From: Coraliomargaritaceae bacterium
Lineage (GTDB): Bacteria > Verrucomicrobiota > Verrucomicrobiia > Opitutales > Coraliomargaritaceae
NCBI GenBank assembly: GCA_965656495.1
Contig: CBFHKU010000004.1
Span: forward strand, 75,392-139,391
Length of the DNA: 64,000 nt
Direction: 5' to 3'
Made by a program: the position numbers and the translations under genes. This document shows positions 51,000 through 64,000 of this stretch, piece after piece. The stretch's first letter is position 1; each line of letters begins with the position of its first letter. A model generated the notes under the pieces. That model was not told the DNA's origin, searched no databases, and was given only the letters and a program-made list of their open reading frames with translations.

Positions 51000-51260
51000 A
51001 AGCTTGAGAACCTTGAGGGAGTTGGAAGTTTTTAGTTGAACCTTGGAAATCCAAATTCACCACAGAGCAACAGAGTACACAAAGGGTTTCATTAAAGCTT
51101 CAGTGTCCAGGCAACGCTCCGTGCTCTTCCTGCCTTCGTAGTGAGCGTTCTCTGATTAAGATTAGGAGTAAGACCTAGACTAATCCCAACGAACAACTAG
51201 CAACGTTCAACACCTTCCCTTCAACGTTCAATGTTCGACGTTCAACGTTCATAACCCTTC
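51000..51260. repeat. Cluster of short repeats (aacgttc heptamers, caacgaacaact, caccacagag..cagag)
   Basis: Same motifs recur at 61270-61430 and 63320-64000. Confidence 0.7.
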
Positions 51261-51376
51261 CCCCAGCATTCAGAAACTAATGGCACGCATTAATTTTACT
51301 TTTTATTTAATATACTCATTGATTTTAGGCTTAATGCGGTTTTTAATAATACCCTGTTTTTCATCTACACGCGACC

Positions 51377-54034
51377 ATGCCCCTCAGCGAAGCCAAAGCA
51401 CATCAAATTTCTTCAAGCCCCATTAAACTTGAGGATTGCTGGGCCAAGACTGATACAGAAACGGGAGAAATAAATTTAACCGTACTCGACCACAGTCTAA
51501 CAGTTGGGGTCGTTGCGGGTGCGCTCTATTGTGCCTCCTTGAATCAAGTTTGCCGACGACTGCCACTTGGTTTCCAGACCTTAATCGCTTCCCACGATAT
51601 TGGTAAACTCACCCCTGGCTTTCAACTCAAGGCCACGAAGTGGATTCACCATGAAAGTTTGTTGAATTTAGTATGTAACAGAAACCTATGTACTAAGCAT
51701 GCAATCATCAGCCAATGGCATCTTTCGCAAAATCCTAGTTTCAATACTAGCACCAAAGGATGGCTCCTTTCGACAGGCGGACACCATGGCAGTTATATAA
51801 GTTCAATCATCCCTCAGATGGCAAGATATGAAGGCGGTGATACAATCTTTAACGGTTTACGTGATCAACTGCTTGAAATCTTGATTGAGACCTTCGGGCC
51901 CTTACCTCACGAATCCGCCGAAGAACAACAGGCAAGAATTCACCTTTTAACAGGCCTCACAATCTTTGCAGATTGGATTGGCTCAAACACAAACTGGTTT
52001 CCACCAAACAAAAGACATAACCTCGAAACGCTCCGCAATACTGCCGAAGATTGCCTTGAGAAGCTCTTTTGGGAAGTTGAGCCTCAAAAGGACTTGAGTT
52101 TCGGGGCGCAGTTCAATCCCGCTAAGCCCAAAGCCTTCCAGCCGCGCAGCATTCAATCCGCACTGCTTGAAGCGGCACAACATCCCGGTCTTTATATCGT
52201 AGAAGCACCGATGGGCATGGGAAAAACGGAAGCAGCCCTCTCTGCAGCCTATCAACTATGGAATAAAAAAGCTGCTCGGGGTTTATACTTTGCCCTTCCC
52301 ACTCAACTGACCTCAGAAAAAATCAACGAGCGCATCTTCAAGTTCCTTGAGAACACCTTTGAATCAACCACCATCCAAACCCTAATCCATGGGAACGCTT
52401 GGCTGAATGAGGAGCAAAGCCGTCGTTTGGTTCACCCTAACACAAAAGAAGATGCTGAGGAAAAGAGCGATACGGATGAAGCGCTTCGTTGGTATAGTAC
52501 AACACGAAAACAACTGCTCGCTCCTTTTGGAGCTGGCACGATTGATCAAGCTCTACTCGCGATTCTCCCGGCTAAATTCGCCGCCCTCCGGTGCTTCGCC
52601 CTGGCGGGTAAAGTCGTGGTCATTGATGAAGTACATTCCTTTGACCCTTATATGTCTGCTTTGATTGATCGACTGGTGCACTACCTCATCGAAACCGGCA
52701 GCACCGTCATCGTTCTCTCCGCAACCCTCACGACACAAAGACGTCGCGAATTGGTTGAGGCCGCAGGTACCAATGAATCGAGTCCGCCCGTAGCATATCC
52801 ACTTATCACTAAAGTTGCCACTGGTGAAACGGGGGCGCAACACTTTGAAATTGCGCATGAATTGCCCGAAAAAACGGTGCACATCAAAAAGCATCGCCTT
52901 CCTGAGAATAACGATCGCTATTGGCAAGAAATCGCCAGCAAGGTCGAGGCCGGAGCCAATGTGGTCGTTATCCGTAACACCGTTGCCCTTGCACAGGAAA
53001 CCTATTGCAAAATCAAAAGCTACCTCCGCGACAGAATTCCATCTGAAAATATCGGTTTGATCCATTCCCGTTTCCCGCATTTGCGACGGCTGGAGAACGA
53101 AAAAAAGTGGACGGAACGATTGGGCAAAGACACCGCCGAGCGTCCTCAAGGATCGCTCCTTGTCTCAACCCAAATCCTTGAACAATCCGTTGATATCGAC
53201 GCCGACCTGCTCGTCACAGATCTCGCCCCCCTCGACCTTATCCTACAACGCATTGGTCGCCTGCATCGACATGAGATAAGCGATCGCCCGAAAGGATTTC
53301 GACAAGCTACCTGCGAAATTCTAATGCCCAACACGAATTGGAAAGGTTCTGCGAAGGAAACTAAAGCTGCCCTATTACCGCACGCTTTTGTTTATCGTGA
53401 AATAACCCTTTGGCGTGCAGCACAATTGCTACACGACATTGATTCAATTAAATTGCCTGGCGAAATTCGCCCCCTGCTTGAAAAGAATAGCGCCTTATTA
53501 CCCGATCCAGAGAAAGAACCGGGCATCTACGCTTTATGGGAAGCATTCAAGGATGAAGTAATCAAGAAAATCGATACCGTGAAGAATCGCGATGTTTTCA
53601 ACGCATTGGCGAATGACGATAAAGAAGGTATTGAGACACGCGACGGCATACAACCCACCGCCCAACTTATTCTCCTGAGAGAATTTCCAAAAGAAAATAA
53701 CAGCAGCAGCGAGTTGGATTTACTCGATGGCGAGTCCGTCCGCATAGATCATAACAATTTCTCATTTGAAGTAGCCAAGACGCTCCAGCAGCACGCCATC
53801 CGTATACCGCGCTACCTCGTCATAGAGCAACTGATCGAGAGTCCCCCTTGGTTAGTCCGATATTGCGGCGATGCAGTTTTGGCCCTCTACCAACCGGATG
53901 TTCCAACCCTGCAATTCCAAAGTGAGACAAGCTCCGGTTACCAACTCAATTTCCGCGAGGATCTCGGGCTGAGCTATCGAAAGGAAGAGATTTCTGCCGA
54001 ATTTATTTCACAAGAAGATGATTACTGGAATTGA
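51377..54034 (+). CDS. cas3: Cas3 HD nuclease-helicase
   Basis: WAKT, DHS, SHDIGK, GHHG, FADWIGS, APMGMGKTEAA, DEVH, LSATL, QRIGRLHRH. Confidence 0.98.
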   Translation: MPLSEAKAHQISSSPIKLEDCWAKTDTETGEINLTVLDHSLTVGVVAGALYCASLNQVCRRLPLGFQTLIASHDIGKLTPGFQLKATKWIHHESLLNLVCNRNLCTKHAIISQWHLSQNPSFNTSTKGWLLSTGGHHGSYISSIIPQMARYEGGDTIFNGLRDQLLEILIETFGPLPHESAEEQQARIHLLTGLTIFADWIGSNTNWFPPNKRHNLETLRNTAEDCLEKLFWEVEPQKDLSFGAQFNPAKPKAFQPRSIQSALLEAAQHPGLYIVEAPMGMGKTEAALSAAYQLWNKKAARGLYFALPTQLTSEKINERIFKFLENTFESTTIQTLIHGNAWLNEEQSRRLVHPNTKEDAEEKSDTDEALRWYSTTRKQLLAPFGAGTIDQALLAILPAKFAALRCFALAGKVVVIDEVHSFDPYMSALIDRLVHYLIETGSTVIVLSATLTTQRRRELVEAAGTNESSPPVAYPLITKVATGETGAQHFEIAHELPEKTVHIKKHRLPENNDRYWQEIASKVEAGANVVVIRNTVALAQETYCKIKSYLRDRIPSENIGLIHSRFPHLRRLENEKKWTERLGKDTAERPQGSLLVSTQILEQSVDIDADLLVTDLAPLDLILQRIGRLHRHEISDRPKGFRQATCEILMPNTNWKGSAKETKAALLPHAFVYREITLWRAAQLLHDIDSIKLPGEIRPLLEKNSALLPDPEKEPGIYALWEAFKDEVIKKIDTVKNRDVFNALANDDKEGIETRDGIQPTAQLILLREFPKENNSSSELDLLDGESVRIDHNNFSFEVAKTLQQHAIRIPRYLVIEQLIESPPWLVRYCGDAVLALYQPDVPTLQFQSETSSGYQLNFREDLGLSYRKEEISAEFISQEDDYWN

Positions 54035-54105
54035 TCCCCACGTATGTGGGGAAACCAAAAATTTTTCTACGAAAAACGGTTCATCCCAATATTGTATCGG
54101 GCGCT
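54028..54105 (-). CRISPR. Mini-CRISPR (pseudo-repeat, 20-nt spacer, pseudo-repeat), CreA/CreR-like
   Basis: Minus strand: agcg-cccgata-caa-tattggg-ATGAACCG | tttttcgtagaaaaattttt | ggtttccccacatacgtggggatcaattc (20/29 identical to the array repeat). Confidence 0.85.
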
Positions 54106-54142
54106 ACTTATCATTTCTATTTAATCTATCATTTCAATGCCT

Positions 54143-54162
54143 AATTTTTCTACAAAAGACTT
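54143..54162 (-). promoter_or_regulatory. Predicted Cascade target of the mini-CRISPR spacer, with AAG PAM
   Basis: Minus strand AAG-tcttttgtagaaaaatt matches spacer positions 1-17 at 15/17; mismatches at 2 (U:G) and 6. Confidence 0.8.
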
Positions 54163-54233
54163 AACTTTTTAGCTTTACAAACCCAATATATTAATTTTAA
54201 AAAATGCCATCAAACATTACATTTGATAGCATT

Positions 54234-54305
54234 GGACTCAGTGATGCTTGGGCATCTCTTGAAACTGTCTATTTTAAGGTTGAGGTTCGACTCCTCCTGA
54301 GTCCA
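54234..54305 (+). ncRNA. Non-canonical tRNA-like cloverleaf RNA (8/4 fold)
   Basis: Acceptor ggactcag/ctgagtcc; D arm gatgc-ttgg-gcatc; cttgaaa-ctGTCta-ttttaag; T arm gagg-TTCGACT-cctc. Confidence 0.75.
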
Positions 54306-54321
54306 ACAAATTTTTAGCCAA

Positions 54322-55794
54322 ATGAATAATTTTAACATTTTAGAATATAAATTCATCCCAGTCCGTTATATTAAACATAGCGGGAATAAGAATCCATTTT
54401 TAGTCTCGCTGACGGATGCATTTATTCGATGCGAAGAAATCGCGGATCTAGACTGCGCCCCACATGAACGTATCGCCCTGCTACGTTTATTGATCTGTAT
54501 CGCACATGCCGCCCTAGGAGCGCCCAAATCACCCGATCACTGGGACGACTTTGGCGAAGATCTGGAGGAAAAAATCACCGCCTATTTGAAGCGACCTGAG
54601 ATAAGCCAGCATTTTAATCTACTTGGTGACGGCGCACGCTTCCTGCAGGAAGATGTCCCCTCTAATGGAGAGGTAACACCGCTTTCAAAACTAACCCCAT
54701 ATCTCGCCACCGGTAATAATCCAACATCCAGCGATCACTTTGGGATAAGCCCCCATCGGAAATTTACGCCGGCTCAGGCAATCCTTGCTCTCTTAGCCTT
54801 CCAAAACTTTTACCCTCTTTATGGAGCGGGCTACAAAGGGCGCGGTCCATGCGCTGACGGCAATGCGATTCACACCTTTCTTCATGGCAAAAACCTTAAA
54901 GCAATTCTCCTCCTTAATTTATTGGACCATCAGACGATTCAGGAATTCGCCCCGAATGGCATCGGTAAACCCATCTGGGAGTGCAAGTCAGATGAAGAAT
55001 TGGAAGCATCGACACGCACCTACCTTGGTCGACTGGTTCCAAGGCACCGCTCGCTCAAACTCACCGACAATCTTTCGGGCTTCTATCACCGCAAGAAAAG
55101 CCTCCTTTATTCCTCATGGGAGCCTTACCGCGAACCCACCTCAACTGGCATTCTAAATCATAAAAAAGAACGACGGTTGCTTTCCGCACGCTTGGATCGG
55201 GGCATCTGGCGCGACCTGCACTGCATCATTGCTCTCAAAAAAAATATCCAAACTGAAGGCGTGGAAGTTGCACCTATCCTTCGCAGTCACATGCTAGCCT
55301 TTGATGCCGGCGAGTGTAAGCTTTGGACCGGTGCGCTGATTACCGATTTCAAAGCAAAAATTCTCGATACGGTCGAATCTACTTTCACGATCAACCATCA
55401 AATGTTCAGCGTACATGGTTATATGACCTACCTGAGCGGTCTGGATCTTGCCGAAATAATTTCCACCAAACTCTATGGAGCTATAAGGGTATATTGGTCT
55501 GCCCTTAAACATGAAACCCCACCAACAAAAGAAGGACAGAAGCATTACTGGAACTGCCTCGATCAAGACCATCGCATTCTGATTCAACTCGCGGGCAATC
55601 CCGAATCGCCTCCGGGAAAAGCTGATTTTGGTCAAGCTAGTGCGGAAGATGAATGGACTAAACTTGTTCGCGGTGCCGCAAAGAGGGCCTACGAGTCCGT
55701 CTGTCCCCGCACCACACCGCGTCAGTTAAAGGCTTATGCTGCGGGACTTAGCACACTCAATCGCGCTCTCTTTCAAAAAAAGGAAGCGAAATAA
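54322..55794 (+). CDS. cas8e: Type I-E Cascade large subunit Cas8e (Cse1/CasA)
   Basis: FNIL..KFIPV, ALLRLLICI, FNLLGDGARFLQ, IWRDL; first gene of the Cascade operon. Confidence 0.9.
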   Translation: MNNFNILEYKFIPVRYIKHSGNKNPFLVSLTDAFIRCEEIADLDCAPHERIALLRLLICIAHAALGAPKSPDHWDDFGEDLEEKITAYLKRPEISQHFNLLGDGARFLQEDVPSNGEVTPLSKLTPYLATGNNPTSSDHFGISPHRKFTPAQAILALLAFQNFYPLYGAGYKGRGPCADGNAIHTFLHGKNLKAILLLNLLDHQTIQEFAPNGIGKPIWECKSDEELEASTRTYLGRLVPRHRSLKLTDNLSGFYHRKKSLLYSSWEPYREPTSTGILNHKKERRLLSARLDRGIWRDLHCIIALKKNIQTEGVEVAPILRSHMLAFDAGECKLWTGALITDFKAKILDTVESTFTINHQMFSVHGYMTYLSGLDLAEIISTKLYGAIRVYWSALKHETPPTKEGQKHYWNCLDQDHRILIQLAGNPESPPGKADFGQASAEDEWTKLVRGAAKRAYESVCPRTTPRQLKAYAAGLSTLNRALFQKKEAK

Positions 55795-55812
55795 AAATTA
55801 AATCCAAAAACC

Positions 55813-56331
55813 ATGACCTCTGATAAAAAATATAAGGATTCTTTCGTAAAGCAGCTCCTGCCCTATGCGAGTGATCATAAACGTGGAGAACGCGCGGCGC
55901 TACGCCGTTATTGGAGTGAAGCCTCCCGAGCCCATGCCTTCCCGATTCTAGGGAATTTGGGCGCATTGGGCGATGAGCGAAAAACTATTCTCGCGGCGCT
56001 CTTTGCGATCCATCCACTTCATAAGAAAAGCAAAATGGGTTCCATTGGCCGCGCCGCCAATCAGCTGGGCAAAACCAAAGAGGGCGACCATCCCTATGAG
56101 CGTCATTTTAAACGCCTCCTCGCCTGCGAAACTTTGAGTGACTTGGCTCCCAATCTTTATCGCCTATGCAAGCGATTGGACCGCGATAAAATCCCGCTCG
56201 ATTACGAATTATTGCACAAAGATCTAAACTTTTGGGCAAATGATAGCGAGCGTGTTAAAACCGACTGGGCAAAAGATTTCTGGCAACCCTACCTGATTGA
56301 AGAAACCCAGAAACAGGAGGAATCAGCATGA
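55813..56331 (+). CDS. cas11: Type I-E small subunit Cas11 (Cse2/CasB)
   Basis: GERAALRR, ERHFKRLL, LDYELLHKDLNFW, WAKDFW. Confidence 0.9.
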   Translation: MTSDKKYKDSFVKQLLPYASDHKRGERAALRRYWSEASRAHAFPILGNLGALGDERKTILAALFAIHPLHKKSKMGSIGRAANQLGKTKEGDHPYERHFKRLLACETLSDLAPNLYRLCKRLDRDKIPLDYELLHKDLNFWANDSERVKTDWAKDFWQPYLIEETQKQEESA

Positions 56332-56969
56332 TTTTGACCCGCGCAGAAATCCCTTACGACATTGTGGCTCGGAAGTGGAAGAAAAATGGATTCCGCGACA
56401 GCTACGCATGGCACAAAAGAATCTGGGAAGCTTTTCCGGGGAAACCCGATGCAAAACGTGATTTCCTCAGCCGACTTGATGATACCGGCGAGTGTTATCG
56501 CCTCCTCATTCTTTCCCCCGAACCTCCTACCCGCCCCGATTGGTGCCCCAGCCCAAACTGGGAATCTAAAACAATAAGTGAGGACTTCCTGGGGCATACC
56601 CATTATCGGTTCTCACTACTCGCCAACCCAACACGCAAACTTATGGTGACGAACGACGACGGAATCAGAAAGAAAAACGGCCGCCGTGAACCCTTACGGA
56701 AGCGGGAAGATTTAATTGAATGGCTTAAAAAGAAAAGTGTTCAACACGGCTTCAAGGTCGATCTGCCAACCCTCAAAACGCTTCCACGACCGCGACAAAA
56801 TTTCTCTGTCATAAAAAAGAAAATTACCGGCACACACTCCGCCGTCGAATACAGCGGCACTCTCGCCGTAACCGATCCCGTATCTTTCAAAGAAGCAGTC
56901 GCCAAAGGCATTGGGCCCGCCAAAGCCTTTGGCTTTGGAATGCTCTGCCTTCATCCAATCACAGAATAA
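56328..56969 (+). CDS. cas6e: Cas6e (Cse3/CasE)
   Basis: YAWHKRIWEAF, YRFSLLANPT, GIGPAKAFGFGML. Confidence 0.96.
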   Translation: MILTRAEIPYDIVARKWKKNGFRDSYAWHKRIWEAFPGKPDAKRDFLSRLDDTGECYRLLILSPEPPTRPDWCPSPNWESKTISEDFLGHTHYRFSLLANPTRKLMVTNDDGIRKKNGRREPLRKREDLIEWLKKKSVQHGFKVDLPTLKTLPRPRQNFSVIKKKITGTHSAVEYSGTLAVTDPVSFKEAVAKGIGPAKAFGFGMLCLHPITE

Positions 56970-56995
56970 ATCCGTAAAACTAAATAGATATAAAC

Positions 56996-58075
56996 ATGAA
57001 ACTCATCGAACTCCATATCCTCCAGTCCTTCCCGGTCTCCTGTCTCAATCGTGACGACATCGGATCCCCCAAGTCCGCTCTCTTCGGCGGCGTCAAACGA
57101 GCCCGTATCTCAAGCCAGTGCCTTAAACGTGCCAGCCGCCTTAGCGCCCATGAAAACCATCCCTCTTTTGAAGGCATCCGCTCCCGTCATCTGCTTTTGC
57201 CTTTTAAAGAGGCACTCACAAAAGCCGGCCAGGATGAAGCATCTGCAAATAAAAACGCAGAACTATTGTGTGCATTATTCAGCAAAAAGGACACCAAGCA
57301 CCCAGAGCAAGTGACGACTGCAGTCTACCTTTCCCCGCAAGAAATTGAGCAAATTGCACAGACAATTTTTAATGAAACAAATACCGAAGAATATCAAAAT
57401 TTAGAGGACGAAAAGGAGGCCAAAAAACTGGCTTCAATCATGAAGTCTGCCATCAAAAACGCGACTCGTTGCGATGCTGCTGACATTGCCCTTTTCGGTC
57501 GGATGATCGCCAATGACCCAAGACTGAACATAGAAGGTGCAGGCATGTTTTCACATGCACTTTCCACTCATAAAGCAGATATTGAAGTTGATTTCTTCTC
57601 CGCAGTGGACGACCGCAAAGCCGACGCCGACGATGCCGGTGCGGGCATGATAGGAACGCTCGAATACAACTCTGCAACCTATTACCGCTACATCGCGGTG
57701 AATCTTGATTTATTGGCAAGTGAAAGTCATCTTGGTGGACTCAGTGAAGCAGAGCGCAAAGACATCTTGGCAGCCTTTATTCGTGCGGCCCTTACCGCAG
57801 TGCCTTCTGCCCGCAAAAACTCTATGAATGCAAGCACGCTCCCGCATGAAGTACTGGGCATTCGAAAATCCGAAGGACAACCGCTCCAACTCGTGAACGC
57901 CTTTGAAGCGCCTGTTTGTGCTACCGGCAAAGGTCTTACTCAAGCTTCGCTTGAAGCAATGAACACCCATTTGGAAAAGATTGAAGGCATTTGGGGCGAG
58001 CAGGGTCATAAGTACTTTTTGACGGAGACCGAAGGCGGCCTTGAAGGCTTCATTGAAAAACTTCTGGAGGACTAA
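56996..58075 (+). CDS. cas7: Cas7 (Cse4/CasC)
   Basis: CLNRDDIGSPK, RARISSQCLKR, DIALFGRM, DFFSAVDD, YYRY. Confidence 0.97.
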   Translation: MKLIELHILQSFPVSCLNRDDIGSPKSALFGGVKRARISSQCLKRASRLSAHENHPSFEGIRSRHLLLPFKEALTKAGQDEASANKNAELLCALFSKKDTKHPEQVTTAVYLSPQEIEQIAQTIFNETNTEEYQNLEDEKEAKKLASIMKSAIKNATRCDAADIALFGRMIANDPRLNIEGAGMFSHALSTHKADIEVDFFSAVDDRKADADDAGAGMIGTLEYNSATYYRYIAVNLDLLASESHLGGLSEAERKDILAAFIRAALTAVPSARKNSMNASTLPHEVLGIRKSEGQPLQLVNAFEAPVCATGKGLTQASLEAMNTHLEKIEGIWGEQGHKYFLTETEGGLEGFIEKLLED

Positions 58076-58079
58076 ACTT

Positions 58080-58784
58080 ATGCCTGCCCTCACTTTCTAT
58101 ATCGACGCGCCCCTTCAGTCATGGGGCGCGTCCTCCAAGTTCCAAAACCGGGAAACCAATAGTTTCCCTACAAAAAGTGCCTTAATTGGAATCCTCGCCG
58201 CAGCACTCGGAATTGATAAATGGGATTCAGATGAGGCAGAAAAACTGCAAGTGCTTACCGCGCTTAAACTGACTGTAGTAAAGCTGTTTAAAGAGAAAGC
58301 CCCTATTACCCGTCTTTCTGATTTTCACACCATTGGTGGCGGTTACGATAAAGTGCTGCAAAAAATGCATATCTCAAGCAAGGCTTCAGGTGGTTCATTT
58401 GGAACTGTTATTACCCGTCGTTCTTACCTCAATGACGCTCGCTTTATTGCACTTTTTGAAGGCGAGCAGTCCCTTCTGGAAAAAATTCAAATCGCCCTAC
58501 TCAACCCAACTTGGGGTCTCTGGTTTGGTCGAAAGCATTGCCTTCCTGCAAGCCCCCTGAGCCCAACTCTCGCCGACGATCCTCAAACGGCATTGGATGC
58601 CTTGCTTGACCTTTTGCCGGATTATTTGCCCGCACCGCTTCAATCTTTGGAATACCAGAGGGAAAGTGACGAGGGTGTCTTTTTTCAAAGCGACCAGCCC
58701 GTTGCTTTTGGGCAACACCACGGCGCGGTTCCTCAACCCTACACCGCCCGCGGAATAGTTCATCACCGTCCCGATGCCTCATAA
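58080..58784 (+). CDS. cas5: Cas5e (CasD)
   Basis: APLQSWG, PTKSALIGILAAALG, DFHT, YLNDARF, FGRKHCLP. Confidence 0.96.
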   Translation: MPALTFYIDAPLQSWGASSKFQNRETNSFPTKSALIGILAAALGIDKWDSDEAEKLQVLTALKLTVVKLFKEKAPITRLSDFHTIGGGYDKVLQKMHISSKASGGSFGTVITRRSYLNDARFIALFEGEQSLLEKIQIALLNPTWGLWFGRKHCLPASPLSPTLADDPQTALDALLDLLPDYLPAPLQSLEYQRESDEGVFFQSDQPVAFGQHHGAVPQPYTARGIVHHRPDAS

Positions 58785-59674
58785 TGCCACTTTTTCAACG
58801 GCCTCCCCTCGATGCGCTCACCCCTGCTAAAGATCGCTGGACACCTATATATCTGGAACATGGACGCGTTGAAGTCGATGATGCCGCCATTAAATGGGTC
58901 GGCAGCGACGGCTCCGTATGCCCAATCCCAATTGCCACCGTCTCAGCCCTCATTCTCGGTCCGGGCACAACCGTCACACACGCTGCAATAAAAGCAGCGG
59001 CACAATGCAATTGCCCCTTATTTTGGCTCGGTGAAGACGGTCTTCGTTTCTACGCCTTCGGCATAACTCCCAACCATGATAATTCCATGGCTCGCATTCA
59101 TGCCCAGGCATGGGCTGCTCCACGCAAGAAAAATGAGATTGCCCGACGAATGTTCCGCTACCGTTTCCCGGACACACCTACCAGCGGAATCTCCATAGAA
59201 CAATTACGTGGCATGGAAGGTAAACGCGTGAAACGCATTTATGAGGAATTAGGCAAACAATACGGTGTCACTTGGAAAGGACGTAATTACTCACCTTCAA
59301 ACTGGAATTTTGCCGACAATATCAACCGCGCACTCTCCGCCGCCACCGCCTCACACTACGCCCTTGTCGCCGCAATTTGTTGTTCCATGGGCTTTATCCC
59401 ACAACTGGGTTTTATACACAAAGCCGGTACCCTGCCTTTCATTTACGATGTCGCTGATCTTTATAAACATGAGACTTCATGGCCCGCCGCCTTTGAAGCG
59501 ATCTCAATCGATCCAAAGGATGACGGCACCCTCGTCAGAAAAATCCTCAAGCGCAATGTCGAGCAATCCAGAATGCTCCTGAAGGCTCCAAAGGAATTAA
59601 AAGCACTATTTGAAAACCTGAAAACCCTTCAGGAACCCACACCACATCCACTTCAACCTAAAGCCCCTATTTAA
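58784..59674 (+). CDS. cas1: Type I-E Cas1
   Basis: LGPGTTVTHAA, LRGMEGKRVK, LGFIH, FIYDVADLYK. Confidence 0.98.
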   Translation: MPLFQRPPLDALTPAKDRWTPIYLEHGRVEVDDAAIKWVGSDGSVCPIPIATVSALILGPGTTVTHAAIKAAAQCNCPLFWLGEDGLRFYAFGITPNHDNSMARIHAQAWAAPRKKNEIARRMFRYRFPDTPTSGISIEQLRGMEGKRVKRIYEELGKQYGVTWKGRNYSPSNWNFADNINRALSAATASHYALVAAICCSMGFIPQLGFIHKAGTLPFIYDVADLYKHETSWPAAFEAISIDPKDDGTLVRKILKRNVEQSRMLLKAPKELKALFENLKTLQEPTPHPLQPKAPI

Positions 59675-59675
59675 G

Positions 59676-59960
59676 TTGACCATAATCGTTGCCAATGATG
59701 TGCCTCCTGCAATACGAGGTCATTTAAAACGCTGGTTCATTGAGCCCAGAGCTAACATCTTTGTGGGCACACTCAATATACGCACACATAAAAAAGTCAT
59801 ACAATTTATCACTCGAAACGCTCCACCTGACTTTGGGTTTCTCAGCATCTCCTCATACCCGAACTGTCAGGGTTATAAAATTGAACGCTTTGGTCCACAG
59901 GGCGTATCCGGACGAAAAGAATCCGTGCTATCTGGAATCTTTCTAGTTGAAGATAACTAA
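59676..59960 (+). CDS. cas2: Type I-E Cas2
   Basis: PPAIRGHLKRWFIEPRANIFVG, QGY; TTG start. Confidence 0.93.
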   Translation: MTIIVANDVPPAIRGHLKRWFIEPRANIFVGTLNIRTHKKVIQFITRNAPPDFGFLSISSYPNCQGYKIERFGPQGVSGRKESVLSGIFLVEDN

Positions 59961-60062: not shown

Positions 60063-61067
60063 GACTTCCCCACGCGCGTGGGGATGAACCGTTGTTTACG
60101 TGGGTTACTCCGGCAGTCAGCTTGACTTCCCCACGCGCGTGGGGATGAACCGACATCCGTCCCTTGACCGATAACGTCTCGGTTGACTTCCCCACGCGCG
60201 TGGGGATGAACCGAACAAAAACGCCTCGCGATCGCAAATTCCGCCGACTTCCCCACGCGCGTGGGGATGAACCGTGTAGGCACCCTGAATGTATTCGCGC
60301 ACTTCGGACTTCCCCACGCGCGTGGGGATGAACCGATGCCCTCCATTGTGAGTTGCCGGGGATCCGTGACTTCCCCACGCGCGTGGGGATGAACCGCCGT
60401 CGTTGACGGAGAACTTGGCGCGGAAGTCGACTTCCCCACGCGCGTGGGGATGAACCGCCCGCGATTATCGTCTGCACGGCAAATGCCTGGACTTCCCCAC
60501 GCGCGTGGGGATGAACCGCCGTGATCTACACCTTCAAAGGCCCGGACCCGGACTTCCCCACGCGCGTGGGGATGAACCGACATCGCACGCATCTTCGGAG
60601 TCCCCGGCCACGACTTCCCCACGCGCGTGGGGATGAACCGGTGGTTTTTAGTTTTTGGGCGTGTGGGTTTTGGACTTCCCCACGCGCGTGGGGATGAACC
60701 GGCCAGCCAAAGAATTAACGAGAGGAGATCGAGGACTTCCCCACGCGCGTGGGGATGAACCGAGTAGCTAGCTCGCCCAACCAACGATCGCTGAGACTTC
60801 CCCACGCGCGTGGGGATGAACCGTCCGGTTCCACTCGGCGAGGATTTTACGGGCCGACTTCCCCACGCGCGTGGGGATGAACCGGCATCCGTCGAGTATA
60901 TCACGGACCACGGCACGACTTCCCCACGCGCGTGGGGATGAACCGACGAATAACCCGCCGCTTGACACCTCCCCCCTGACTTCCCCACGCGCGTGGGGAT
61001 GAACCGGCTTGTGGAGTCGCCCAGTTTTTCTTTACCTGGACTTCCCCACGCGCGTGGGGATGAACCG
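60063..61067 (+). CRISPR. Type I-E array: 17 repeats (GACTTCCCCACGCGCGTGGGGATGAACCG) and 16 spacers of 32 nt
   Basis: Exact 61-bp period from 60063 to 61039. Confidence 0.99.
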
Positions 61068-61857
61068 ACCGGAAGCATTATTATTTGCACGAGCTGTTTG
61101 TCAGGGAGACTCAGGTCGGCGAGACAGGACCAGAACCAGAATTTCCAAGTAAGGGAAGTCCTGCCAAGCCAACCCGAGTCATATATAATGTGCCAAAAGA
61201 GTTTGAGGCGGTCAAACTTAAGAAGCCTTCACAAGACTTCCCCTCACGCGTGAGGATCTTGTTCGTTCCAGGCAGCTTACAACGTTCAACGAACAACTGC
61301 TAACCCCTCCCCATTCATGCCCATTCGTGTCCATTCGTGGTTCCAATCAACAACGTTCAACGAACAACCCCTTTAGTGCCTTCGTTCGAGGTACCCTCCG
61401 TGTCCTTCGTTTCTCCGTGGTAAATCCCCTTTCCGAATCGCGTCTTTCGTGGGTTCGCGGCGTAGAATTCCCTCGCTCGCCGATAGCCTGCCTTCACTTT
61501 TTTAAGGAGGGTATCGTAATCGTAAACCTCCGGGACCGGCTTAGCTGGCGAGGCCTTGCTTTCGGGTTTGTTAGCTTGTGTGGGTTTGTCTGTCATGAAT
61601 CTTGCAGTATTCTGTCTTACTAATGCCAGTTCCACTTCCCCACCCGCGTGGGGATGAACCGGCCGGAAGCATTTTTATTTGCACGAGCTGTTTGCCAGGG
61701 AGACTCAGGTCGGCGAGACAGGACCAGAACCAGAATATCCAAGTAAGGGAAGTCCTGCCAAGCCAACCCGAGTCATGTATAATGTGTCAAAAGAGTTTGA
61801 GGCGGTCAAACTTAAGAAGCCTCCACAAGACTTCCCCACCTGCGTGGGGATTAACCG
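61039..61857 (+). CRISPR. Trailer with two repeat/167-bp/repeat units (repeats at 61039, 61235, 61633, 61829)
   Basis: 61068-61234 and 61662-61828 differ at about 7 positions; each is bounded by intact or degenerate repeats. Confidence 0.9.
61357..61596 (-). CDS. Small hypothetical protein between the duplicated CRISPR units
   Basis: MTDKP...YDYDTLLKKVKAGYRRAREFY; 3' part runs through short repeats. Confidence 0.35.
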   Translation of the reverse strand: MTDKPTQANKPESKASPAKPVPEVYDYDTLLKKVKAGYRRAREFYAANPRKTRFGKGIYHGETKDTEGTSNEGTKGVVR

Positions 61858-63137: not shown

Positions 63138-63485
63138 TCCTGTCCATTCGTGGTACAGCAAGGGCGTCTAGCAGGGGGGTAAAAGGAGGCGACCCCTAAA
63201 GGAAGGCTGAACAAACACCTGAATCAAGATAGGGGTCGGACCAACCAAAAGGGGTCAATCCCCAGCGTGTAAAAACAAAAACCGATGTCAACTCCGGTAT
63301 TTCGCTTCCGACATCGTACACCGAACGTTCAACATCGAACTCACCACCGAGGCTGTTCTGAGCATCGAACATCCAACATTGAACATCGAACGCTGAACTT
63401 CAACTTTCATACATTCCAACTTTCCCACCTTCCCACCATTAAATCCCACCTTCGATGTTGGAAGTTCGATGTTCGGCGTTCCTCC

Positions 63486-64000
63486 ACCTTCCCACTTTCC
63501 CACCTTCATACTTTCCCACCTCACCTCCTCACCTCCCCATTCGTGGTTCCTGCAACTGATTCACCGCCGAGGCACCGAGTACGCGGAGTGGTTATGGGGT
63601 TGGAAGCTGTTAGTTGAACGTTGGAAGCGTAGAAGCGACACTCTTGTCGCTTTCCTAGCACAAGCCGTACAAGCAAAGCGGCAGGATTGCCGCTTCCACG
63701 TGATAGCGCGCCTTCGTGGTGAACAACTTCCCTGATGAAGATTAAGACTTAGGGTAATCCCAACCTTCCCACTTTCCCACCTTCATACTTTCCCACCTCA
63801 CCTCCTCACCTCCCCATTCGTGGTTCCAAACAATTGATTCACCGCCGAGGCACCGAGTACGCGGAGTGGTTATGGGGTTGGAAGTTGTTAGTTGAACGTT
63901 CGAAGCGTAGAAGCGACACTCCTGTCGCTTTCCTAGCACAAGCCGTACAAGCAAAGCGGCAGGATTGCCGCTTCCACGTGATAGCGCGCCTTCGTGGTGA
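63486..64000. repeat. ~237-bp direct repeat (63486-63722 and 63763-64000) with REP-like hairpins
   Basis: Near-identical copies holding agcgaca-ctc[tc]-tgtcgct and aagcggca-ggat-tgccgctt; preceded by aacatcg heptamers (63320-63480). Confidence 0.92.

Follow-up and report, generated by a model that had tools for sequence, protein, structure and literature searches.

According to the accessible portions of the reports cited here and below, CreTA modules, which are type VIII toxin-antitoxin systems, occur in haloarchaeal type I-B and in Acinetobacter and Pseudomonas type I-F CRISPR loci (PMC8501985, PMC10097628, 10.64898/2026.06.02.729485), and creA genes with two repeats have been described (PMC8501985). 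Their cargos are rare-codon RNAs, an Acinetobacter RNA, the protein CreP and proline-codon RNAs (PMC10097628, 10.1101/2024.01.05.574328, 10.64898/2026.06.02.729485, 10.1101/2024.10.29.618823, PMC8730458), none of which is described as shaped like a transfer RNA (tRNA) in the accessible text of these sources. In type I-E, the CreR guide of Salmonella represses casA via an AAG site about 140 bp upstream (10.1101/2023.03.10.532045) and mini-arrays between cas3 and cas8 are common, while cargo-bearing, guide-only and empty loci have been described for type I-D (10.1101/2023.03.03.530964). Allo-tRNAs that have an 8-bp acceptor and a 4-bp T stem (8/4), G3·U70 being present in some, can cause mistranslation or death in E. 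coli and are found close to toxin-antitoxin genes (Mukai et al., PMC5389517); a CRISPR link is mentioned neither in the accessible text of that report nor in that of PMC7609411. Here we describe a type I-E locus of a Coraliomargaritaceae bacterium (Verrucomicrobiota; assembly GCA_965656495.1, contig CBFHKU010000004.1, positions 75,392 to 139,391, the whole 64,000-nt stretch being called the window), in which a mini-array guide and a tRNA-like RNA share the gap between cas3 and cas8e.

The locus is complete within the window, with its cas genes and a 17-repeat array, and the closest named homologs of its Cas8e come from Verrucomicrobiota. An initial annotation had placed in the gap a minus-strand repeat-spacer-repeat unit, an AAG-flanked target about 70 bp away, a 12-bp inverted repeat and a 72-nt tRNA-like cloverleaf ending 16 nt before the cas8e ATG, and all of these were found in place (Table 1). 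The module is real and conserved: its layout, the match between guide and target, its conservation and the one-way dependence of the cloverleaf on the guide were observed. On balance we lean towards a CreTA-type addiction module of a Verrucomicrobiota I-E locus, in which the cargo repressed by Cascade would be a tRNA mimic that poisons translation; membership in CreTA is unproven, and repression and toxicity are predictions.

Guide, target and co-occurrence with the cloverleaf

The diverged first repeat of the mini-array (PsiR1) keeps a 7-bp hairpin and an 8-nt handle, and the target was found 72 nt from this handle. Spacer and target match at 14 of the 15 counted positions, which was equalled by none of 500 shuffles, with an rU:dG wobble predicted at position 2 of the guide seed. 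Across the 2.06-Mb assembly, the gap target was the only site flanked by a protospacer adjacent motif (PAM) with at least 13 of 15 matches, and no phage copy of the window's handle and spacer was found. The PAM precedes a -35-like hexamer by 11 nt and cas8e by 162 nt.

Relatives of Cas8e were gathered by alignment-based scans of genomes and metagenomes and by genome searches; a single-protein locus scan of genome contigs returned no relatives. The 162 loci with a Cas8e match, essentially all from Verrucomicrobiota, included 146 with a gene start and more than 300 nt upstream, of which 117 were distinct. A cloverleaf was taken as intact when a T-loop was accompanied by at least 11 of 12 acceptor/T-branch pairs within 200 nt of cas8e. 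By this measure, an intact tRNA-like RNA was present in seven of the 117 loci (the window, L002 (= L013), L044, L038, L178, L199 and L024), a level reached by none of 1000 shuffles for six loci and by one of 1000 for L178. When both strands of the other 116 loci (598 kb) were scanned, the nine matches comprised the six other members, two ordinary tRNA genes and one chance match.

Mini-arrays were counted in 15 loci after hand curation, in which L202, a match of the motif filter, was dropped (30-nt gap) and L136, which the filter had missed, was added by eye; seven of them carry the intact RNA, L018 a decayed cloverleaf (5 of 12 branch pairs), L017 a doubtful one and six none. In all seven loci the intact cloverleaf follows a mini-array that has a spacer and a target of its own. 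None occurs in the 102 loci without a mini-array, a pattern rather than a statistical test given that the loci are kin and the counts not independent. This bears out the co-occurrence expected under the initial annotation. In close relatives the whole cassette was often lost or never present, and a gap of 10-30 nt remains.

The spacers differ from locus to locus, each matching its own site. For the six loci that were scripted, 14, 14, 14, 13, 13 and 11 of 15 positions matched, and 0, 0, 0, 0, 1 and 21 of 500 shuffles (same order) matched as well, the weaker match with 21 of 500 being that of L024. The PAM of these targets is AAG in five and AAA in L044. For L199 the script's top match was a non-PAM site, and an AAG site (10/15) was located by eye; no target was found for L037 or L058. 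No Cas8e relative was confirmed on viral contigs, and a plasmid scan for Cas8e gave distant Thermus matches only.

Several loci had features of their own. The cas3-cas8e gap of L037 (2849-3500, 652 nt) is filled by a multi-spacer minus-strand array whose last spacers have no target. In L136 (minus strand), about 790 nt before cas8e, a mini-array and an AAG target are followed by about 600 nt with small open reading frames (ORFs; up to 64 amino acids) and no tRNA-like RNA, and these ORFs are a possible protein cargo in the same slot. L017 (3300-3494) combines a mini-array, a 15/15 target and a hairpin with a repeat-like half with a degenerate tRNA-like stretch that has no standard T-loop, and in L018 (3000-3215) the 3' end of cas3 changes frame, which may reflect decay or an assembly error.

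The tRNA-like RNA and its alanine-type ends

The window cloverleaf is the minimum-energy fold (z -3.6). Its 8/4 acceptor/T branch has 12 of 12 pairs, with 11 pairs being reached by none of 1000 dinucleotide shuffles, and the RNA further has a 5-bp D stem with a tetraloop and an 8-bp anticodon-like arm in which GUC occupies 54267-54269, carries A73 and lacks an encoded CCA. It scores 24.3 bits against the Rfam tRNA model, below the 29-bit cut-off, and is the only sub-cut-off tRNA match among 36 in the genome. ARAGORN misses it at default settings and calls it Asp(GUC) at a 95% threshold; a 70% threshold gave noise (295 calls in the window). A canonical tRNA-Asp(GUC) was rejected on account of A73, the 8/4 layout and the Rfam score, the host having its own normal tRNA-Asp as well as a full transfer-messenger RNA (tmRNA). 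The host also encodes a gene of the CCA/poly(A) polymerase family. Over the whole assembly ARAGORN reported 35 tRNAs, including Leu(AAG) and lacking tRNA-Ala and Ile(GAU), maybe through an assembly gap.

It is very improbable that the cloverleaf is a leftover mobile-element integration site or the leader of a classic CreT-type small-ORF toxin. The cas genes do differ in G+C content from the upstream and flanking genes (0.48-0.49 vs 0.58, with 0.34 in the cas3-cas8e gap), but an integration remnant was rejected because the gap sequence has no second copy in the genome, and both halves of the cloverleaf covary. A 37-codon frame starting at 54204 was likewise rejected as cargo, as it is not conserved in the seven other loci checked; it has no Shine-Dalgarno motif and begins before the predicted transcription start. 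Over the eight loci, the translation-start signal and conserved mini-ORF with hairpin of known CreT RNAs were not found.

Since MAFFT misregisters the 5' half, base pairs were counted by coordinates, without a covariance model. Across the seven members, acceptor pairs 1-7 are intact in 49 of 49 cells and the four T-stem pairs in 27 of 28, and the stems covary, acceptor pairs 4-7 having substitutions on both strands of the stem. G1-C72, G2-C71, U70 and A73 are present in all seven, and G3·U70 in six, the window alone having A3-U70. A73, G2-C71 and G3·U70 are among the bacterial alanine determinants (PMC9976931), and all three occur in six members, which are putative alanine acceptors, but not in the window copy. 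The anticodon arm is variable: the triplet found in the loop is GUC, CCU, UGC (three loci) or UAG, and bulges or poor pairing affect several of the stems. The members measure 69-75 nt and none has a long variable arm.

The members have three builds, which fall into three clades of a quick Cas8e tree (71 of the 117 rows; support from the Shimodaira-Hasegawa-like approximate likelihood ratio test, SH-aLRT). The 8/4 build was found in the window, L002/L013 and L044 (12/12 pairs each) and the decayed L018 (11-row clade, SH-aLRT 100), a 7/5 build resembling tRNA-Ala in L038, L178 and L199 (25 rows, SH-aLRT 98), and a build resembling tmRNA ends, without a D stem, in L024 (6 rows, SH-aLRT 99), whose tmRNA-model score is not specific, ordinary tRNA-Ala also reaching about 40 bits. 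This distribution fits a repeated recruitment of alanine acceptors, although separate origins are not proven. Phage tRNA-Ala genes share acceptor and T-arm sequence with the family and are a plausible source. The shared 3'-end pattern was found in 19 viral loci; most of these are ordinary phage tRNAs, and a convincing mini-array accompanies none of them. Among viral contigs read by eye, L160 has an apparent 8/4 tRNA-like RNA with G3·U70, and L159, L166 and L167 have short RNAs with tmRNA-like ends; the ends of these four phage RNAs are of alanine type, and ARAGORN misses them there or barely calls them.

The same features could point to a helpful cargo, namely an additional tRNA-Ala or an anticodon-nuclease decoy that is made when a phage attacks and Cascade is inhibited. 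With 42 bits L038 scores above the Rfam tRNA cut-off, L038, L178 and L044 have UGC-containing loops and phage tRNA-Ala genes carry the same acceptor ends; however, with anticodon arms that are bulged or poorly paired, loop triplets that differ (GUC, CCU, UGC, UAG), an L024 that lacks the D stem and resembles tmRNA ends, and no need for such a cargo to be blocked from read-through, we find this explanation quite unlikely.

The window copy may itself be a disarmed relic of a toxin family, as alanine and aspartate identity are both missing; we hold this to be doubtful, and it would be compatible with the addiction module that we favour. A single change at position 3, seen in one of the seven members, would keep the fold and remove alanine identity, the decayed L018 and doubtful L017 copies suggest that such RNAs do get inactivated, and the seed wobble of the window guide points the same way. 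Against decay, the copy has kept all 12 pairs of the branch together with its D stem and 8-bp arm, although it has diverged strongly from L002 and L044, and some irregular, non-suppressing allo-tRNAs still caused cell death (PMC5389517).

Promoter, hairpin and proposed mechanism

The arms of the inverted repeat (54203-54214 and 54222-54233) form 11 of 12 pairs on the plus strand; on the minus strand a U·G pair takes the place of the mismatch. A -35-like hexamer is located 59-64 nt before nucleotide 1 of the cloverleaf in the window, L002, L044, L038, L199 and the decayed L018, and 58 nt before it by eye in L178, for which the script picked another at 55. The corresponding distance to the mature end is 38-46 nt in 19 of the 28 host tRNA genes with such a hexamer, consistent with ordinary spacing. 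From the spacing we infer a transcription start near 54209, which should fall within the left arm of the hairpin, so that an RNA reading through is predicted to mask the 5' end of the tRNA. RNase P (ribonuclease P) needs an open leader. In computed folds of read-through RNA, the last five leader bases are all paired in the window and in L002, whereas L044 has four of the five paired; three to five of these bases become free when the RNA starts at +35. For L038, L178 and L199, the hairpin formed by read-through RNA invades the acceptor stem (probability of pair 1:72, 0.00), and the +35 RNA restores this pair (0.99-1.00) with the leader staying largely paired. The hairpin is predicted to be placed like a safety catch against read-through.

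A further role of the hairpin, tentative and on the unlikely side, is that of an intrinsic terminator on the minus strand, which can coexist with the favoured explanation. It would end an antisense RNA over the cloverleaf, which would serve as a second, type I-like antitoxin, or shield the target and the guide promoter from antisense traffic. In most loci an A-run just before the hairpin would give a U-rich tail on the minus strand, and the minus-strand fold is the stronger one in the window (-14.1 vs -8.4), L024 (-29.0 vs -23.1) and L178 (-29.3 vs -24.9), whereas the plus-strand fold is stronger in L199, L044 and L002, the L178 stem has no adjoining U-run, the terminator scan of the window found none, and no shared minus-strand promoter was seen by eye in six loci.

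The cas8e-to-cas2 genes are probably co-transcribed from the predicted promoter, the scan of the window having found no terminator between it and cas8e. Plain autorepression of the cas genes, the alternative named by the initial annotation, does not hold as the sole account of the seven cloverleaf loci, where each cloverleaf lies behind its own guide and the stems covary, although six of the 15 mini-array loci lack the cloverleaf. It could be extended by treating the cloverleaf as a harmless cis signal for cleavage by RNase P or RNase Z that trims the cascade messenger RNA or sets its stability. Acceptor/T branch and elbow are the parts that processing enzymes read. These parts are conserved while the anticodon arm is variable, the cloverleaf ends about 12-50 nt from the cas8e start in all seven loci, and no terminator was found in the window. 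Autorepression by I-E CreR has been shown experimentally (10.1101/2023.03.10.532045). We nonetheless judge this extended account unlikely, as it leaves unexplained the G3·U70 and A73 across three builds, a hairpin that keeps the acceptor stem from folding and the absence of the cloverleaf from all 102 guide-less loci, and close relatives express the same genes with a gap of 10-30 nt.

In the addiction module that we favour, Cas6e would mature the mini-array RNA into a short guide, as suggested by the retained hairpin and handle. By analogy with CreR and CreA, and given the computed target match, Cascade would bind at the AAG site, a short way upstream of the -35 box, and repress the promoter that serves both the tRNA-like RNA and the cascade genes. 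Transcripts that read through from cas3 would contain the full hairpin, which pairs the leader or invades the acceptor stem, and would yield no mature mimic, whereas RNA from the repressed promoter would lack the first 5-7 hairpin bases and could fold and be processed. When Cascade is lost or inhibited, the mimic would be excised by tRNA-processing enzymes and gain CCA, and most members would then be charged with alanine through G3·U70. Translation could be poisoned by misdecoding or stalling via the irregular anticodon arm or, alternatively, by a mimic that ties up alanyl-tRNA synthetase (AlaRS), EF-Tu or SmpB. The window copy, with A3-U70, may act uncharged or be weakened.

We give even chances to a wider claim, that of a further class of CRISPR-repressed toxins in which I-E Cascade silences a free tRNA mimic recruited up to three times (as an 8/4 allo-like RNA, a tRNA-Ala with a bulged anticodon arm and a mini tmRNA end), each time as an AlaRS substrate, with a hairpin that senses the start site and blocks read-through maturation, and with inhibition of Cascade freeing a mischarged or non-decoding tRNA that halts translation.

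Several points, along with the kinship of the loci, weigh against the addiction module. Autorepression alone would explain the guide, given that the cascade genes are probably driven by this promoter as well, and toxicity and expression of the cargo are predicted from sequence. The start site is placed by spacing, and its -10 region is an atypical A-run: a T-ending -10 at 17-nt spacing is present only in L044 of six loci, compared with 12 of 19 host tRNA promoters. L024 falls outside the hairpin geometry. The window copy has no encoded CCA, though 33 of 35 host tRNAs encode it, no G73 for charging with aspartate, and A3-U70 in place of G3·U70, a change reported to abolish alanylation by insect and human AlaRS. 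The UGC-containing loops of L038, L178 and L044 would be cognate for alanine, and the conserved G3·U70 may be inherited in part from tRNA-Ala ancestors. Finally, the cloverleaf label showed no significant clustering on the tree, with 97 of 500 shuffles giving a value as low.

Table 1. Features of the type I-E locus, in positions of the window.
Feature	Position	Strand	Remarks
cas3 (type I-E)	51377..54034	+	last codons overlap PsiR2
PsiR2, second repeat of the mini-array	54028..54056	-	20/29 identity to the CRISPR repeat
Spacer of crRNA-like (CRISPR RNA-like) guide, CreA/CreR type	54057..54076	-	20 nt
PsiR1, diverged first repeat	54077..54105 (about)	-	hairpin 54085-54101, 8-nt 5' handle 54077-54084
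Candidate mini-array promoter	54110..54137	-	9/12 consensus match, alone not above chance
Guide target	54140..54162	-	AAG PAM 54162-54160 and protospacer, 14/15 counted positions matched
Predicted promoter	54174..54202	+	-35-like hexamer 54174-54179 (5/6), A-rich -10 region
12-bp inverted repeat adjoining the cloverleaf	54203..54233	undefined	predicted read-through safety catch and/or minus-strand terminator
tRNA-like RNA, 72 nt	54234..54305	+	8/4 branch, A3-U70, A73, no encoded CCA
cas8e-cas11-cas6e-cas7-cas5-cas1-cas2	54322..59960	+	
Main CRISPR array	60063..61067	+	17 repeats, 61-nt spacing

Around the locus, a unit of a repeat, a 167-nt segment and a degenerate repeat occurs twice 3' of the array (61039-61263 and 61633-61857); the two units share 94% identity, lie 594 nt apart and have a segment without a clear match to the array leader. 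Low-complexity intergenic repeats, some of them as long inverted copies, surround the cas locus (51018-51272, 61275-61368 and 63312-64000), and similar tracts precede the tmRNA gene.

Relation to described systems

If the proposed mechanism is correct, a tRNA-shaped RNA joins the short list of CRISPR-repressed toxins, and type I-E gains a candidate CreT. A testable role would also be gained for tRNA-like RNAs of the irregular 8/4 and alanine-marked kinds, which had so far only been suspected of a connection to toxin-antitoxin systems, and a hairpin able to tell read-through transcripts from those begun at the promoter would let an operon house a toxin gene in compact form. Such RNAs escape default tRNA and gene callers, so more of them may be hidden in cas operons. 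The conserved pairing suggests a fake tRNA that would act as a poison released once the CRISPR machinery is off.

Like CreTA, the locus has a degenerate two-repeat mini-array between the cas genes of a type I system, a spacer that partly matches a PAM-flanked site at an adjacent (here predicted) promoter and a small RNA cargo downstream. The known CreT RNAs, which are of the rare-codon, proline-codon or Acinetobacter type, rely on a mini-ORF with signals for translation start and on a hairpin, and CreP is a protein, as far as the accessible descriptions go, whereas the cargo here is a tRNA cloverleaf without a conserved ORF, in type I-E and with a toxicity that is predicted. With CreR and the I-E mini-arrays it shares the position, the AAG PAM and a target about 140-160 nt before cas8e, beside the promoter of the cascade operon, and the relatives include cargo-bearing, guide-only and empty loci as in the mini-array survey. 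Unlike CreR, for which the accessible text describes no cargo, the guide does not stand alone, as it is coupled to a conserved tRNA-like RNA; for the I-E mini-arrays the accessible text describes protein cargo only and no tRNA-like RNA.

The likeness to allo-tRNAs, as described in the portions at hand, lies in the 12-bp 8/4 branch (three of the seven intact members only), the 5-bp D stem with tetraloop in the window, the diverse anticodons, GUC being among the commonest in allo-tRNAs, and the G3·U70 of some of them; the family differs in having A73 and no long variable arm, where allo-tRNAs have a long arm and mostly G73 or U73. With the tRNA-like domain of tmRNA, L024 shares the 5' and 3' ends, G3·U70 and the missing D stem, but there is no mRNA-like domain, and the window RNA is not of this build. 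No description of a guide paired with a tRNA-shaped cargo was found in the literature searched, which covered subscription journals thinly and supplements not at all. The guide half of the module is already known as CreA/CreR, and the tRNA-shaped cargo would be its new part.

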